Shown one piece after another: positions 48,273 to 62,248 of a stretch of DNA of 64,000 nt; position 1 is the stretch's first letter, and each line of letters opens with the position of its first letter. The DNA is from an uncultured bacterium (GTDB lineage: Bacteria; Actinomycetota; Acidimicrobiia; Spongiisociales; UBA5794), in the NCBI GenBank assembly GCA_963777645.1, contig CAVZRA010000004.1:288060-352059 (forward strand), written 5' to 3'. Made by a program: the position numbers and the translations under genes. The notes under the pieces are model-generated. The model was not told the origin of the DNA. It saw nothing but the letters and a program-made list of their open reading frames with translations, and did not search any database.

Positions 48273-49100
48273 TCAGCTCAAGCCGCGGCTGTCCTGTTTG
48301 AGGGCGGTGTCGACCGACAATGCCGAGGCGATGACCATCGAGCGCAACGGCTCATCGAGGGTGCGGTGGATCTGGAGCACGTAGTTGTCTGCGGTGGTGA
48401 ACATGGTCTTGGCAAGGCCTTCCCATGTCTTGGTGATCCTGGCGACTTCGGAACCGGAACTGTCCTGGATGCTGAAGTTCCAGGCACGCCAGTTCTCGGC
48501 CTTGATCTCGCCGATCTCGGATTTGTTCACCTCGAGCCCGAAGTTGATCTTGCCGAACACGTTCTTCTGGACGATTGACCCGATCAGTCTCCCTGCCCCG
48601 TCTGTGATGTCGAGGCGCGACTTGACGAACTTTGCCGGGCGAGTGATGGCGAGATGCACAACGCCCTTCATGTCCACGATCTGGAACTTGTGGGTGAGGA
48701 ACTTGTCGACATCACTGACAAATCGCAGTGCCTTCTTGAAGCCACTCTGCCCCACCTCGCGGATCGCGCCGATCTGATTGCCGAGCTGGTCGTAGATGGC
48801 GTACTCGCTGTTGACCTCGATCAGCTTCGCACGCTGATTCACCACCAGGATCGGCTCGGTGAATATCGTCCCACCTCCCGATGGGGCGATGGGCAATCCG
48901 GCTTGCACTTCCACCTGGCGCTGCACTGTGGCGGACGATTGCTGACCGGCGGGGACATCGGCGCCGGTGCCGGCACCGGTGTCTTCGGTCTCGGCGGAGC
49001 CATTCATCACCCGGGCGGTCCATCTCGTTCCGTCCCAATAGCGCTTCTCATACTTGCCGGAGGGGTCGGGATACCAATTCGGGGGCGGTAGATCACTCAT
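48273..49100 (-). CDS. DUF2510 N-terminal domain fused to a scramblase/LOR-like (tubby-fold) domain
   Basis: The N-terminus PPNWYPDPSGKYEKRYWDGTRWT matches the DUF2510 motif. The C-terminal roughly 200 aa resemble the phospholipid scramblase family pattern. Confidence 0.55.
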   Translation of the reverse strand: MSDLPPPNWYPDPSGKYEKRYWDGTRWTARVMNGSAETEDTGAGTGADVPAGQQSSATVQRQVEVQAGLPIAPSGGGTIFTEPILVVNQRAKLIEVNSEYAIYDQLGNQIGAIREVGQSGFKKALRFVSDVDKFLTHKFQIVDMKGVVHLAITRPAKFVKSRLDITDGAGRLIGSIVQKNVFGKINFGLEVNKSEIGEIKAENWRAWNFSIQDSSGSEVARITKTWEGLAKTMFTTADNYVLQIHRTLDEPLRSMVIASALSVDTALKQDSRGLS

Positions 49101-49203
49101 GAATCAGAGGCTACACGCCCACAGGCCGCTCCCGACGGCATCGTGTCGGTGCGCGGCCTGCGGGCCGGGTAGTAGCGATCTGATCCACAGTCACGATCGA
49201 GGC

Positions 49204-49272
49204 TCAGGGCAAGGAATCTGTCACCGGGAGCTCCAAATCGGTCCTGCGAGTGTGAACATGATCATCTTGCAT
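49204..49272 (-). CDS. Candidate mini-ORF b (22 codons; an alternative 14-codon frame runs 49221-49265)
   Basis: GGGGAAAGGAGAG lies immediately upstream. The peptide is MQDDHVHTRRTDLELPVTDSLP, or MIMFTLAGPIWSSR from the second ATG, which has better SD spacing. Confidence 0.2.
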   Translation of the reverse strand: MQDDHVHTRRTDLELPVTDSLP

Positions 49273-49324
49273 CTCTCCTTTCCCCTCGATCCCCTGAAGG
49301 GGGTGTCGTACTGGCGGCATCCGG

Positions 49325-49471
49325 TCATCTCACCCGGATTGCGGCGACAGCTTCATTCATGCGTGCGATCTGGCGAGCGCTGGCGTCTTCGACCCAGCGC
49401 GGCTTGCGACCGGGATCGATGCTGTGACGCACGATCGCGTTGCTGATGCGGTTGTTTGGTGCTTTCACCAT
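49325..49471 (-). CDS. Candidate small protein a (48 aa)
   Basis: GAAAGGAGGGGG precedes ATG-GTG. The peptide is MVKAPNNRISNAIVRHSIDPGRKPRWVEDASARQIARMNEAVAAIRVR. No family recognised. Confidence 0.4.
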   Translation of the reverse strand: MVKAPNNRISNAIVRHSIDPGRKPRWVEDASARQIARMNEAVAAIRVR

Positions 49472-49574
49472 CCCCCTCCTTTCTTGCTTTCTGTGACGGA
49501 AGCTGCCGGGAACTGCGGGCTGCGATGGGCCGTGTATGTGTGCAGGGCCACAGGTCCCGGCGGCTTTGCCGTCG

Positions 49575-49643
49575 TGGAGCGGGAAGGAGTCGAACCTTCA
49601 GGAACCCCCGCGGGGTCCGCCCCGGTGTATGAGCGGGGCGGAC
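49575..49643 (-). ncRNA. tRNA/tmRNA-like 3' module: long hairpin, short GC hairpin, T-arm and acceptor 3' strand
   Basis: The minus strand reads GUCCGCCCCG-CUCAUACAC-CGGGGCGGAC, CCCGCGGG, GAAGG-UUCGACU-CCUUC, CCGCUCC-A. The T-loop is canonical, and U at the position-70 equivalent with discriminator A matches the tRNA-Ala/tmRNA pattern. There is no D-arm and no 7-nt anticodon loop. Confidence 0.35.
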
Positions 49644-49652
49644 AAAGAAGAA

Positions 49653-49670
49653 AGCCGCCCCCGGGCGGCT
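49653..49670 (-). terminator. Intrinsic terminator after mini-ORF c
   Basis: The minus strand reads AGCCGCCC-gg-GGGCGGCU followed by UUCUUCUUUG, about 30 nt after the ORF c stop. Confidence 0.6.
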
Positions 49671-49702
49671 CCTCGTGAACGATATGTGCGGGTTGACGAG
49701 CC

Positions 49703-49831
49703 CTAGTTGGTCGTCACCCCGGTGTTCCGAGGAGCAGTGCTGATGAGCCAGGCACCAACCGTGCCGGAGCCGCGCAGACGCGGAGACACGAGCCGGTAGC
49801 TGGAATCAGCAGTGAAGGTGTGAGCGATCAT
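49703..49831 (-). CDS. Candidate small protein c (42 aa)
   Basis: GAGGAGAAAGGAGA, then 7 nt, then ATG. The peptide is MIAHTFTADSSYRLVSPRLRGSGTVGAWLISTAPRNTGVTTN. A TTGACA -35-like box lies upstream (49934-49939) and a terminator downstream. This call competes with a tmRNA-like reading of the same RNA. Confidence 0.35.
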   Translation of the reverse strand: MIAHTFTADSSYRLVSPRLRGSGTVGAWLISTAPRNTGVTTN

Positions 49832-50007
49832 CTCGTGTCTCCTTTCTCCTCGAAGTCCTGAAACTGAAACGCCGCAACGCCCCAAGAGAGGGGTGTCACG
49901 GCCTGGCCATAATCTTGCATAGATGTATCAAAGTGTCAAGGTCTTTCTCGATCTCACACCAATCGGGGCGGTCAATCGTGACGGCACACGAGGGGTAGGC
50001 TCGGGTC

Positions 50008-50778
50008 ATGCTCCCGTTTGACTCGTACCTTGCCCACTTCGACGCCGACGCCCATCTGCTTGCTGCTGCGGCGGCCAGGGGCTATGAGGCGGAGGTGCCC
50101 TGTTGTCCCGGCTGGACCGTGCGTGACCTCGTCATCCATATCGCCGAGGTGCACAGTCACAAGGCAGACCTCATTGCCGGTAGCTGGGTCGAATCTTCAC
50201 CTCCACGGCCGAGCATCCCCGAAGGCGTTGACCCGTTGCAGTGGTATCGACGAGAGGCGGACCGGTTGTACCAGGCGCTGTCGGTTGCCGAGCCAAAGGC
50301 GCCTGCGAACACGTTTGGCCGTGACCGGACGATGGGGTTCTGGTTCCGAAGAATGGCACACGAGACGGTGATACACCGGGTCGACGCAGAGCAGGCGCAC
50401 GGATACGAGAGCGCCGTCGATCCCGGGCTCGCCCTCGATGGTGCCGCCGAGGTGTTCGATGTGTTTATCACCGGCTGTCCGTCGTGGGCGCACTTTCAGC
50501 CTTCGGCAGATGTCGTCCGGGTCGAAGTCGGTGACGAGTCCTGGACCGTTCGGCTCGGCAAGTACGTTGGGTCCAGAAGGGGCATCGACTACGCAGTCAG
50601 AACCACGATGTTGGTGGACGACGCACCGGATGCTGTGATCACAGGGGACCCGGATCGTGTGTTCCTGTGGATGTGGGGCCGCGCTCCGATCGGGGATGTC
50701 GCCGTCACCGGAAGGAGCGAGGTCGCAGACAAGTTCCGGGCGACCTGTGCCCGCCGGCAGGTCCAGGGGAGCCCCTGA
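50008..50778 (+). CDS. Mycothiol-dependent maleylpyruvate isomerase N-terminal (DinB_2) family protein
   Basis: CPGWTVRDLVIHIAEVH ... MAHETVIHRVDAE matches the typical TIGR03083-type pattern. Confidence 0.7.
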   Translation: MLPFDSYLAHFDADAHLLAAAAARGYEAEVPCCPGWTVRDLVIHIAEVHSHKADLIAGSWVESSPPRPSIPEGVDPLQWYRREADRLYQALSVAEPKAPANTFGRDRTMGFWFRRMAHETVIHRVDAEQAHGYESAVDPGLALDGAAEVFDVFITGCPSWAHFQPSADVVRVEVGDESWTVRLGKYVGSRRGIDYAVRTTMLVDDAPDAVITGDPDRVFLWMWGRAPIGDVAVTGRSEVADKFRATCARRQVQGSP

Positions 50779-61189: not shown

Positions 61190-61785
61190 GGGCTGACGAG
61201 CCTTTCAATGGTGACGAAGCCGGTGAAGCCGTCGTCGCTGTTCAATTCGCCACCCTCGTCGAGGATGGATTGTGGGATCGGTAGGACAAAGACCTCGATC
61301 ACCGCACCGAATGGGTCGGCGGCAGGATCGAGGGGAATCCACATTGCGGTGCTGGTGCGTTCGCTGCGGATTCCGATCGATGGGACAGAGATCGGCTGTT
61401 GGTTCATGGTCGATCCCTGGCGGATCTCGCGGATTTCGATGTCGGTCTCGGGTCCAGGGCTACCGGTGTCGACAAAGAGCAGACGAGCTGCGCTCTCGGT
61501 CGGTGAGATAGCGACCTCGGTGACTGTCACCTGAATCGATCCGATGAGTGTTGTTCCCGTCGCGGGAAGGAACTCGACCGCCGTATCGCTCACGATTCCC
61601 GGCGTTTGCGCGTCTACCTGCCGACTGGTTGCTAGGGCGACAAAGGTCAGCCCGGCCACGACGATTGTGATGACGGTGATGACGGTGAGAGCCCGGTATC
61701 GGAACAGCCGCAGAGACGCGAGCAGGGCGTCGCGGGGCGGTGACTCGAGAGGCAATCCCTCCAACGCGTCAATTGGGTCAGTCAT
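61186..61785 (-). CDS. Single-pass membrane protein in the anti-sigma factor position
   Basis: A short cytoplasmic N-terminus, one TM (ALTVITVITIVVAGLTFVALA) and an extracytoplasmic domain; ATGA overlap with the ECF sigma stop. Confidence 0.5.
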   Translation of the reverse strand: MTDPIDALEGLPLESPPRDALLASLRLFRYRALTVITVITIVVAGLTFVALATSRQVDAQTPGIVSDTAVEFLPATGTTLIGSIQVTVTEVAISPTESAARLLFVDTGSPGPETDIEIREIRQGSTMNQQPISVPSIGIRSERTSTAMWIPLDPAADPFGAVIEVFVLPIPQSILDEGGELNSDDGFTGFVTIERLVSP

Positions 61786-62248
61786 CTTTCACCCCACAGC
61801 TCTCTAGATGCTGCCGCCGCTCTCGAGACCCGTTGCCGGGTCGCCGCATCACTGATGCCGAGCAGGGTCGCAATGTCTTTGGTCGGTAAGCCTTCGACGT
61901 GATGGAGCACGAGCAGTTCTCGCTCGTCCAACGGCATCCGACGCAACGCATCGGCGACGGCGGCTGTGTCGTCGTTGTCATCGCGGTGGATCCCGTCCAG
62001 ATCAGCTCCGAGCTCGGGTGCCCGGTACGACGTCCGCAGCCACTCGCGATGGATGTTGCGGGCGATGCCAAGCAGCCATGTCCGATAGCTGGATTCGAAC
62101 CGGAATCGGTCGGCGCCGACGAGCGCACGTACAAAGGTGTCTTGGGTGAGATCGGCGGCGTCCGCCGGCTGTCTTCCCATTCGTCTGAAATAGGTGAACA
62201 CAGCCGTCTCGTGCTGCCGTAGCTCTCTTGTGAGTTGGTCTTCCCCAT
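61782..62248 (-). pseudogene. ECF sigma factor; the N-terminus apparently needs a 1-nt frame correction near 62225
   Basis: Regions 2 and 4 are clear (DLTQDTFVRAL...WLLGIARN...LDERELLVLHHVEGLPTKDIATLLGISDAATRQRVSRA). Region 2.1 (ELRQHETAVFTYFRR) has no in-frame ATG, GTG or TTG start. The ATG at 62248 is one frame off. The intact-ORF alternative starts at the GTG at 62201. Confidence 0.6.

Follow-up and report, generated by a model that had tools for sequence, protein, structure and literature searches.

Structures that resemble tRNAs, lie within longer transcripts and are cut by RNase P and RNase Z are well established; examples are the mascRNA of MALAT1, MEN-beta, the t-elements of plant mitochondria and bacterial operon mRNAs (PMC4919922). 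The locus described here shares with these systems, and with operon RNase P sites, an acceptor/T-arm minihelix set in a longer RNA between functional segments (PMC4919922); the module boundaries fall exactly at the 5′ and 3′ ends of the element, which is non-decoding. Unlike mascRNA and the t-elements, it is bacterial, lies between two small ORFs and has no D arm at all; it would be a cleavage site, and a competing 10-bp hairpin is found in the clade of the window (the whole 64 kb stretch of DNA that was analysed). The tRNA-like domain of tmRNA and the Y RNA YrlA are also close, in that a T arm and an acceptor without a normal D stem form a structured, non-decoding mimic; here, too, the acceptor ends in GCUCC-A, with a G3.U70 pair in the window's clade. 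Unlike tmRNA, however, the element has no tag reading frame and no pseudoknots; unlike YrlA, it has no Ro/Rsr gene among the called genes of related loci; and unlike either, it has no Rfam match and its G3.U70 pair is not conserved across lineages.

Upstream of this element, the locus resembles the trp, his, pyrBI and ermC attenuators: a short SD-led ORF (ORF a), with an unconstrained peptide sequence, precedes an intrinsic-terminator-like element, its SD would be sequestered after synthesis, favouring a single co-transcriptional round of translation, and its end overlaps a candidate regulatory hairpin. A second upstream ORF and hairpin stand before a scramblase-family gene. The same segment is also reminiscent of dual-function sRNAs and type I toxin mRNAs, as it is a predicted promoter-to-terminator unit, about 260 nt long, in which a conserved helix sequesters the SD of a small ORF; in contrast to those RNAs, the ORF a peptide is neither hydrophobic nor conserved, and the tRNA-like element and a further small ORF (ORF b) always come after the unit.

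The locus and its relatives

Between a scramblase-like gene (ATG at 49100, minus strand) and a divergent DinB gene (50008) lies 0.9 kb of DNA with no large ORF. The sequence-only reading of this stretch had described an ordered minus-strand layout of SD-led small ORFs, a terminator and structured RNA, and all of the features it listed were recovered at or near their positions. It had also considered the AAGGAG-type SDs unlikely to have arisen by chance, and the counts agree: three of the eight AAGGAG copies on the minus strand of the window fall inside 570 nt here, where about 0.16 would be expected by chance.

Relatives were collected in two ways, via ORF b and via a DNA pattern. The region from 49940 to 49100 (minus strand) is collinear across about 12 distinct lineages of Acidimicrobiia, which fall into two cassette types (type-1 and type-2 lineages). 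Its non-coding blocks are 80–91% identical across lineages, compared with 52% identity at the third codon positions of the scramblase-family gene and 0.49–0.51 in spacers. The locus, whose layout is non-random and functional, is a conserved, hitherto undescribed cassette of uncultured Acidimicrobiia. The stretch consists of two minus-strand units, Unit 1 (49940–49325) and Unit 2 (49324–49101). In distant lineages the cassette adjoins unrelated convergent genes; Unit 1 is thus an autonomous, RNA-rich cassette, specific to Acidimicrobiia. A comparison with Rfam, suggested by the sequence-only reading, assigned it to no family: Rfam 15 gave 0 matches at the gathering threshold for the window and nine related loci, and only chance-level matches in E-value mode. 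The features, in 5′ to 3′ order along the minus strand, are as follows:

49911–49939, minus strand: putative sigma-A-type promoter, read from the sequence; −35 box, spacing and TGnnAnnnT kept in all lineages
49871–49902, minus strand: 5′-terminal hairpin, GCCGUGAC-CCCC-loop-GGGG-GUUGCGGC (RNAalifold; in 12/12 lineages)
49782–49850, minus strand: SD region (GAGGAGAAAGGAG) and SD-sequestering helix (two compensatory pairs in L011–13)
49703–49831, minus strand: leader ORF a, 42 codons (MIAHTFTADSSYRLVSPRLRGSGTVGAWLISTAPRNTGVTTN), open in 12/12 lineages
49668–49735, minus strand: long hairpin M2; basal stem covaries (C-G to U-A), block 91% identical
49644–49669, minus strand: intrinsic-terminator-like element, stem GCCGCC(C)/(G)GGCGGC followed by UUUCUUCUUU (terminator scan; conserved)
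49615–49643, minus strand: 10-bp hairpin, GUCCGCCCCG-CUCAUACAC-CGGGGCGGAC, in the window's clade; C-to-U changes in the 5′ arm give G.U pairs
49575–49623, minus strand: tRNA-like element without a D arm (covariation; 97.1% of cells paired)
49495–49573, minus strand: hairpin M4 (per-sequence folds; loop identical in 12 lineages)
49325–49480, minus strand: SD AGGAGGGGG (49480–49472) and ORF b (pN/pS 0.29; 57 homologues)
49221–49307, minus strand: hairpin GACACCCC-loop-GGGG, SD and ORF c; the SD-led ORF is kept in all scramblase-linked lineages
49110–49176, minus strand: long hairpin M6 (RNAalifold; six pairs with compensatory changes)

The leader ORF and the terminator

The putative promoter is composed of a −35 box, TTGACA (49939–49934), a 17-nt spacer and an extended −10 made up of TGc (49919–49917) and AAGATT (49916–49911). 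Both the AT-rich patch (GC 0.54 at 49800–49999, vs about 0.62–0.65 nearby) and the TTGACA box pointed out earlier are real, but a consensus promoter scan made no call at 49911–49939, because the −10 matches at only three of six positions. The promoter is probably active, with a transcription start predicted near 49904, and the 5′-terminal hairpin, whose GCCGUG motif is invariant, begins about 2 nt from the predicted 5′ end. Further along, the ORF a SD (GGAG at 49842–49839, 7 nt ahead of the ATG) is contained in GGAGACACGAG (49842–49832), which pairs with CUCGUGUCUCC (49792–49782, within ORF a), so that the start codon is enclosed by the helix; in other clades the equivalent SD helix is built from different sequences.

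ORF a was found exactly as first described, at 49831–49703. Its SD and ATG are kept, its length ranges from 37 to 50 codons across the 12 lineages, and the +1 frame is open in only one of them; these features suggest that ORF a is translated. Its pN/pS is 0.85, and the fractions of variable columns by codon position (0.50/0.55/0.55) show no periodicity. In the last 11 codons pS falls to 0.04, the conserved C-terminus being invariant even at synonymous sites. From these substitution patterns we conclude that ORF a is without protein-level selection and that the constraint sits on the RNA; the peptide-operon reading first offered for this ORF was abandoned. A small-peptide operon with three functional products (signalling peptides, RiPP precursors or toxins), in which the RNA structures would be secondary, could explain why three SD-led ORFs are kept in presence and approximate length, and why an APRNTGATT motif is conserved at the C-terminus of ORF a in type-1 lineages. 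We nevertheless regard it as very unlikely, given the pattern of change in ORF a just described: its C-terminal changes (N to I in L025, AT to KS in L026) are non-conservative and are accompanied by compensatory changes in the RNA, its peptides are unrelated between type-1 and type-2 lineages, no modification enzymes are conserved nearby, and the peptides are not hydrophobic. The earlier idea of small proteins or leader peptides survives in another form, with ORF b a real gene and ORFs a and c of leader type. Caution is needed in annotation, as gene callers label the 42-codon ORF a protein in several assemblies, yet it is the RNA structure that is constrained.

The RNA that the end of ORF a contributes to is hairpin M2. 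Its 5′ strand is made of the final 10 codons of ORF a, its 3′ strand runs up to the terminator, and the ORF a stop codon (49705–49703), near the apex, lies within M2 in 12/12 lineages. In the M2 block 78% of the columns are invariant, and the unpaired nucleotides GGAACACC and CACAUAUCG are strongly conserved; the internal-loop sequences differ between the two cassette types. Thus, as in a leader-attenuator, an SD-led and presumably translated ORF lies upstream of a terminator and is structurally tied to it. The clean intrinsic terminator of the sequence-only reading was found independently by a terminator scan (49672–49651, plus the T tract CTTCTTTGTC). A GC hairpin with a U-rich tract, the sequence form of an intrinsic terminator, occurs in all 12 lineages, and 49644–49669 probably acts as one. 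Unlike in the trp, his, pyrBI and ermC leaders, no run of regulatory codons occurs in ORF a, its stop codon falls short of the terminator stem by 33 nt, and a search for an antiterminator that could compete before the U tract is transcribed yielded no convincing candidate.

Pairing between the U tract and the SD of ORF c (AGGAGAAAG) had been put forward as a possible riboregulatory switch. This proposal failed: in 12/12 lineages the duplex is no stabler than with shuffled tails and, since shuffled tails pair as well, the complementarity reflects purine-rich against pyrimidine-rich composition. The 10-bp hairpin noted earlier was located at 49643–49615, with the short GC hairpin after it. This hairpin and the acceptor stem of the tRNA-like element are mutually exclusive, and in the predicted fold of the unprocessed RNA of the window's clade the 10-bp hairpin is preferred (−52.3 vs −43.5 kcal/mol for the tRNA-like fold). 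A chain of mutually exclusive helices can be traced from the terminator arm to the 10-bp hairpin and on to the acceptor, with A-U compensation in L005 and L025; because it is downstream of the U tract, this chain alone cannot prevent termination.

The tRNA-like element

A T arm and an acceptor strand had been recognized in the sequence-only reading. Both are real and under structural selection; the 5′ partner of the acceptor has to be corrected to GGGGCGG (49623–49617), which doubles as the 3′ arm of the 10-bp hairpin. The element has a 7-bp acceptor (GGGGCGG/CCGCUCC) stacked on a 5-bp T stem (GAAGG-UUCGACU-CCUUC), a 7-nt T loop of the form UUCRANY (consensus across lineages, UUCRAYY) and a discriminator base (A49575), together with a central hairpin (CCCC-GCG-GGGG) and a 5-nt linker. 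The acceptor and T stems covary; five pairs show double changes, and the observed score was reached by 0 of 500 shuffles. A covariance model found one copy per cassette. The 7-mer directly 5′ of the central hairpin pairs at 7/7 positions in every lineage except L029 (6/7), with compensatory changes. Two other acceptor partners were rejected. One is a strand suggested by RNAalifold, GGAGC; the other is the 3′ arm of the terminator (the register of the Rfam tRNA-Sec model), for which L005 and L025 have an A-C mismatch and pairing is poor in distant clades.

The element is not a canonical tRNA: it has no D stem, its central hairpin is of 4 bp with a 3-nt loop, and it lacks the elbow-forming GG of tRNAs. 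ARAGORN found 0 tRNA genes in the window and 15 loci, and the best Rfam match of the element, to tRNA-Sec, is weak (20.8 bits vs a gathering score of 47). At only 49 nt it is not a tmRNA either, and neither ARAGORN nor Rfam detected one. An alanine identity via G3.U70 was considered and dropped, as this pair, present in the window's clade, is A-U or G-C in other lineages.

Integrases duplicate the part of a tRNA made up of the T arm and the acceptor strand. The element could accordingly be a decayed 3′ fragment of a tRNA or tmRNA, left as the attachment-site scar of an integrated element, a remnant of which had been among the possibilities first listed; the T arm, an acceptor strand ending in GCUCCA as in tmRNA and tRNA-Ala, and the G3.U70 pair of the window's clade would all fit. 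This explanation is already contradicted and we hold it to be extremely unlikely: the element sits inside the conserved cassette in every genomic context, its stems covary and its T-loop consensus is kept, G3.U70 varies as described, and there are no integrase or mobile genes. Moreover, the region had no blastn match in phage or plasmid collections, and an exact-pattern scan of viral contigs with a 24-mer gave 0 hits. Four viral matches to a 16-mer, all without the tRNA-like element, were taken as chance, as was a second GGTTCGAATCC (62091–62101), within a long ORF (61778–62248, minus strand).

What the element does have is the form of a processing signal, an acceptor/T-arm mimic inside a longer, predicted transcript. 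In the L031/L032 lineage it has been lost and everything else kept; the element is thus dispensable there.

The small protein, the scramblase leader and a model of the cassette

Hairpin M4 begins 1–2 nt past the discriminator (2 nt in the window), and lineage-specific insertions are found exactly at this junction; both would fit cleavage there. The long imperfect hairpin previously placed at about 49503–49563 is real and spans 49573–49495. Its apical loop carries the 12-nt CACAUACACGGC (49540–49529), invariant in 12/12 lineages, and 70% of the columns in the block are invariant, whereas the stems differ completely between clades. A single consensus structure for M4 failed, as the stem registers differ between clades, and folds were computed per sequence in its place.

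Conserved unpaired nucleotides in M2 and in the M4 loop, and a terminator directly 3′ of M2, would be expected if the invariant nucleotides of M2 or M4 formed the aptamer of a ligand-sensing riboswitch controlling the terminator or the ribosome-binding site of ORF b. The M2 internal loops differ between cassette types, however, M4 is no multi-helix junction but a simple, long hairpin that has a single large loop, Rfam offers no match, and the regulated gene hints at no metabolite; a riboswitch seems to us distinctly improbable.

ORF b runs from a GTG at 49468 to a stop at 49325 and encodes 47 aa (VKAPNNRISNAIVRHSIDPGRKPRWVEDASARQIARMNEAVAAIRVR). The 48-codon ORF with a strong SD of the sequence-only reading is a genuine small-protein gene, but its start has to be moved: the conserved start is the GTG, the ATG at 49471 being specific to this window. 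The pN/pS of ORF b is 0.29 in frame vs 1.5–1.8 out of frame, and the fractions of variable columns by codon position (0.38/0.28/0.72) show third-position periodicity, from which we conclude that ORF b is a true protein gene. The family comprises 57 proteins, nearly all of 47–48 aa. An AlphaFold2 model (pLDDT 78.5) portrays the product as a basic helix-loop-helix protein. No match was found for the peptides in Pfam, NCBIfam, PHROGs or PADLOC, or for ORF b in the PDB (sequence profile) or by Foldseek with the AlphaFold2 model.

Unit 2 (49324–49101) is a separate leader, for the scramblase-like gene. It contains a hairpin at 49307–49291, an SD (AAGGAG, 49280–49275) and the 14-codon upstream ORF c (MIMFTLAGPIWSSR, 49265–49221), which is conserved in presence, SD and length (12–17 codons), its peptide sequence not being conserved; ORF c, too, is probably translated. 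The third SD had been assigned to a 14- or a 22-codon ORF, of which the former is conserved; the 22-codon frame, like a 38-codon frame after ORF b, is not. Hairpin M6 ends 9 nt ahead of the scramblase-family ATG (49100), a start without an SD, and an equivalent hairpin is present in L026/L027.

For Unit 1 we propose a translation-coupled leader and terminator, followed by RNase P/Z-type cleavage at the tRNA-like element that releases a hairpin-capped ORF b mRNA, a reading that we judge to have an even chance of being correct. A single promoter would give an RNA that opens with the terminal hairpin. The ORF a SD would be locked in a helix with codons 14–17, so that translation would occur mainly while the RNA is made, and the end of ORF a, M2 and the terminator would act as a translation-coupled attenuator, or form the 3′-terminal part of a structured RNA about 260 nt long. 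Read-through transcripts would carry the compact tRNA-like element, with its acceptor stem, one central hairpin and T arm, which is most likely a cleavage signal, for RNase P on the 5′ side and RNase Z on the 3′ side. Cleavage would produce an mRNA with its 5′-terminal nucleotides in the base of M4. The invariant 12-nt loop of M4 is probably a recognition site for a protein or an RNA, and is followed by a perfect SD and the gene for the 47-residue, basic, predicted helical protein. Several facts stand against this proposal: no antiterminator and no regulatory codons were found, the unprocessed RNA is predicted to favour the 10-bp hairpin, and the tRNA-like element is lost in L031/L032 and has no D arm or elbow GG.

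The same features may instead belong to two RNAs, a stand-alone sRNA of about 260 nt, possibly dual-function, and a ribonucleoprotein or autoregulatory unit formed by the tRNA-like element, M4 and ORF b. ORF a would then be incidental or rarely translated, and the basic protein would bind the loop or the tRNA mimic and control its own translation, as is the case in many ribosomal-protein leaders. The first unit does have its own putative promoter and terminator and an ORF a without protein-level selection, and the 12-nt loop is invariant though the hairpin stems vary; ORF b is basic, predicted helical and preceded by a perfect SD, and the leader motif GCCGUG is complementary to a loop motif, CACGGC, both being invariant. 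Against this, no promoter-like conserved element occurs from the terminator to ORF b, the gap between the terminator and the tRNA-like element is only about 30 nt in the window, and ORF a is open, with SD and ATG, in 12/12 lineages. On balance we find two RNAs possible but somewhat doubtful.

A more speculative reading, which we consider unlikely, would make Unit 1 a self-contained translation-sensing device. Whatever state the leader ORF and the terminator are in would be relayed from the terminator arm to the 10-bp hairpin, to the acceptor and possibly to the ORF b SD; the helix chain would thereby gate the tRNA mimic, deciding whether it forms and is excised, and the 47-residue protein would bind the CACAUACACGGC loop or the released tRNA-like RNA, making a new small ribonucleoprotein of Acidimicrobiia.

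With the cassette come several candidate structured RNA motifs and one new family of small proteins, none of which is present in Rfam, Pfam, NCBIfam or the PDB; their source is a poorly studied, mostly uncultured actinobacterial class. Processing of the tRNA-punctuation type is known from organelles, eukaryotic long non-coding RNAs and bacterial operon mRNAs. If the proposal made here is true, a D-arm-less tRNA mimic between two mRNA ORFs would extend this type of processing to the regulation of bacterial protein genes.

Layout, relatives and conservation

Between the MDMPI/DinB-family and scramblase/DUF2510 genes, every feature named in the sequence-only reading is present, in the following order:

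Features of the locus in the window
50008-50778, plus strand: MDMPI/DinB-family gene, upstream flank
49939-49934, minus strand: TTGACA, then a 17-nt spacer (read from the sequence)
49919-49911, minus strand: TGc-AAGATT, after the 17-nt spacer (read from the sequence)
49902-49871, minus strand: 5' hairpin
49831-49703, minus strand: strong SD and 42-codon ORF (ORF a)
49672-49651, minus strand: GC hairpin and T tract, called independently by a terminator scan
49643-49615, minus strand: 10-bp hairpin
3' of the 10-bp hairpin, minus strand: short GC hairpin
Minus strand: T arm GAAGG-UUCGACU-CCUUC, then CCGCUCC-A
49573-49495, minus strand: long imperfect hairpin (M4)
Minus strand: second SD and 47/48-codon ORF (ORF b)
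Minus strand: third SD and short ORF
49176-49110, minus strand: further long hairpin (M6), ending 9 nt short of the scramblase-family ATG
49100-48273, minus strand: scramblase/DUF2510 gene, downstream flank

The clustering of AAGGAG-type SDs also holds: the minus strand of the 64 kb has eight AAGGAG hexamers, and three fall within 570 nt at this locus. The layout observation itself is confirmed, and the interpretation given with it is supported in part: the riboregulatory pairing proposed between the U tract and a downstream SD is a composition effect. Over the whole window, Rfam gave no match at the gathering threshold and ARAGORN reported nothing; in E-value mode, the sole noteworthy Rfam match was tRNA-Sec (20.8 bits, 49576-49661).

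Searches with the 48-aa ORF b peptide returned homologues with 70-79% identity; the contigs that carry them are collinear with the window, having a 42-aa ORF roughly 235 nt upstream and a scramblase-family gene roughly 210 nt downstream. A profile built from the peptide family recovered 57 proteins, nearly all of 47-48 aa; where these carry an organism-level name it is always Acidimicrobiia, and the remaining names read only 'bacterium'. When one genome per species was scanned, three MAGs matched, one of them named Acidimicrobiia. An invariant 24-mer was found in only four contigs of a metagenome scan and in none of the viral contigs scanned, and blastn against phages and plasmids gave no match.

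Conservation was measured as mean pairwise identity over 10 sequences, with the third codon positions of the scramblase-family gene as the neutral baseline.

Mean pairwise identity by region
Scramblase-family gene, third codon positions: 0.52 (invariant columns 7%)
Two spacers: 0.49-0.51
5' UTR: 0.83
ORF a, last 11 codons: 0.91 (invariant columns 78%)
Stop codon to terminator: 0.80
tRNA-like region: 0.82
Long hairpin M4: 0.88 (invariant columns 70%)

The non-coding blocks of the cassette are at least as conserved as the first and second codon positions of the neighbouring gene (0.76 and 0.82).

Boundaries of the cassette and neighbouring genes

Lineages with an ORF b of only 33-40% identity have the same arrangement (promoter, 5' hairpin, SD, ORF a, hairpin M2, terminator, tRNA-like element, M4, SD, ORF b), and the gene that comes next there is convergent and encodes an acyltransferase or pirin, in place of the scramblase-family gene. 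Judged from this synteny, the cassette is autonomous and ORF c, the short frame after the third SD, therefore belongs with M6 to the scramblase-family gene. In one lineage (loci L031 and L032) the tRNA-like element is missing and everything else is kept; it appears to have been removed by an internal deletion. Upstream, extra genes separate the MDMPI gene from the cassette promoter in three related loci (L001:4704-5483, L003:2338-3117 and L005:1488-4004), encoding either a short-chain dehydrogenase or an aldo-keto reductase and a DUF234 ATPase; synteny is lost directly 5' of the -35 box, and this point marks the upstream edge of the cassette.

Of the candidate frames for ORF c, the one of 14 codons (49265-49221) alone is conserved; all scramblase-linked lineages keep an ORF of 12-17 codons that follows an SD and shows a loose G-x-I-R motif. 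M6 shows six compensatory pairs. The scramblase/DUF2510 gene itself lacks an SD (49100-49120 region, minus strand), its ATG lying 9 nt past the 67-nt covarying hairpin; coupling, hairpin melting and a leaderless-like mode are candidates for its translation.

DinB-superfamily genes, MDMPI or MST/DinB_2, adjoin the cassette in several different contexts (50008-50778 in the window; upstream in L025 and L026; downstream at L023:3618-4085 and L028:1680-2150). Both families are tied to mycothiol-dependent enzymes. The adjacency may be a coincidence, because several DinB-family genes occurred in these few loci.

Coding status of ORF a and ORF b

ORF b starts at a conserved GTG (49468) and encodes 47 aa in all close relatives. 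Its pN/pS is 0.29 in frame as against 1.5-1.8 out of frame, and its variable columns are distributed 0.38/0.28/0.72 over the codon positions; on this substitution pattern, ORF b is a real protein gene. An AlphaFold2 model (pLDDT 78.5) has a helix at 7-15, a loop with a conserved PRW motif and a helix at 25-47; no relative was found in the PDB by sequence or by fold. In a MAG labelled MFD (L009:3001-3260) the N-terminus of ORF b is shifted and ORF c cut to 12 codons by single-base indels; as the RNA blocks around them are intact, the indels probably arose in assembly and are not real frameshifts. The ORF b SD (AAGGAGGGGG, 49480-49472) is complementary to the 3' strands of the T stem and acceptor (CUCCUUCCCGCUCC, 49590-49576, both minus strand), and MFE folding of the window, L001 and L005 as single sequences pairs the two. 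This pairing may act as an SD-sequestering link or may be an effect of composition; in type-2 cassettes its place is taken by a local GCGCUCC element 5' of the SD.

ORF a is open in 12/12 lineages (37-50 codons; chance of staying open 0.2-0.45 per lineage), as against 1/12 for the +1 and 6/12 for the +2 frame. Its pN/pS is 0.85, without periodicity (0.50/0.55/0.55), and pS falls to 0.04 in the last 11 codons. The peptides of type-1 and type-2 cassettes are unrelated, and non-conservative changes in type 1 (N to I in L025, AT to KS in L026) accompany compensatory RNA changes. ORF a therefore behaves as a leader ORF, of which the presence and end position matter and the peptide does not.

In all lineages the 5' hairpin (GCCGUGAC…GUUGCGGC) is 2 nt away from the predicted 5' end. 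The SD is sequestered by a helix in which GGAGACACG pairs with CGUGUCUCC within ORF a, with two compensatory pairs in L011-13; other clades keep the arrangement with unrelated sequences. In M2 (49735-49668), which adjoins the terminator hairpin, the ORF a stop codon is near the apex in 12/12 lineages, and a C-G pair of the basal stem is exchanged for U-A from one cassette type to the other. The type-1 internal loop of M2 (49690-49682, minus strand; CACAUAUCG or CACAUACCG), absent from type 2, resembles the M4 loop CACAUACACGG (49540-49529) and could be a second copy of one candidate recognition motif.

The tRNA-like element, M4 and a proposed mechanism

Fourteen sequences from all clades were compared for the tRNA-like element. 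The acceptor 3' strand (CCGCUCC, CCGUUCC, CCGUCCC, CUGCUCC or GUGCUCC) has its partner in the 7-mer immediately 5' of the central hairpin (GGGGCGG, GGAACGG, GGAGCAG or GGAGCAA); the T stems are GAAGG/CCUUC, GGAGG/CCUCC, GGGU/ACCC, GGGC/GCCC and GAGGU/ACUUC, with a UUCRAYY loop. In these stems 97.1% of cells are paired, compared with 89.8% in shuffles (0/500 reach the observed value) and 54-73% when the partners are slid, and double changes occur at five pairs. A D arm is lacking, and only the window's clade has G3.U70. Searched with a covariance model, each cassette gives exactly one copy and the rest of the window gives none; a second GGTTCGAATCC (62091-62101, minus strand) was rejected as an RNA element, being a chance T-loop-like string within a long ORF (61778-62248, minus strand).

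M4 begins 1-2 nt past the discriminator. Its stems are entirely different from clade to clade, but CACAUACACGGC is always present in its apical loop. The 3' half of this loop, CACGGC (49534-49529), is perfectly complementary to the invariant leader motif GCCGUG (49902-49897, both minus strand), both motifs being unchanged in 12/12 lineages, and a long-range or intermolecular contact is possible. In L011, about 150 nt are inserted between M4 and the SD of ORF b, with TTGGCGGCCCGTCAGTCG present twice in the insert. L025 carries two copies (2221-2264 and 2322-2365) of a 44-nt double-hairpin repeat (GGGAACGCC..GGCGUUCC, then GGGAGUUGC..GCAACUCC), one in the loop of a hairpin upstream of the tRNA-like element and the other directly 3' of it, that looks like a miniature repeat element.

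Alongside the RNA structures, their conservation and the coding status, which the comparisons demonstrate, we infer the following steps. A sigma-A-type promoter would drive transcription, and the sequestered SD would limit ORF a to co-transcriptional translation. A ribosome nearing the ORF a stop codon would unwind M2, next to the terminator; read-through RNA would fold into the tRNA mimic and be cut by RNase P and RNase Z, leaving an ORF b mRNA with M4 as its cap. Other systems provide precedents for cutting by these enzymes at tRNA mimics (PMC4919922). Lineage-specific insertions of 28-36 nt exactly between the discriminator and the base of M4 (L006:1683-1710, L008:1061-1088, L010:2873-2900 and L009:2837-2872) are consistent with this step, as is the presence of a hairpin at the start of each proposed RNA segment. 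The insertions in L006, L008 and L010 hold a UUCG- or UGCG-capped hairpin.

This scheme has weak points. An antiterminator able to act before the U tract was looked for and none was found. In unprocessed RNA of the window's clade the 10-bp hairpin is predicted to be preferred over the tRNA-like fold (-52.3 vs -43.5 kcal/mol). The terminator arm, 10-bp hairpin and acceptor form a chain of mutually exclusive helices; in L005 and L025 the 3' arm of the terminator shows A-U compensation with the 10-bp hairpin's 5' arm, which suggests a switch.

Known families gave no match to the cassette, and full-text literature searches returned nothing on this combination of parts. The leader ORF, intrinsic terminator, tRNA mimic and small protein gene are each of a known kind, and their combination appears to be undescribed.
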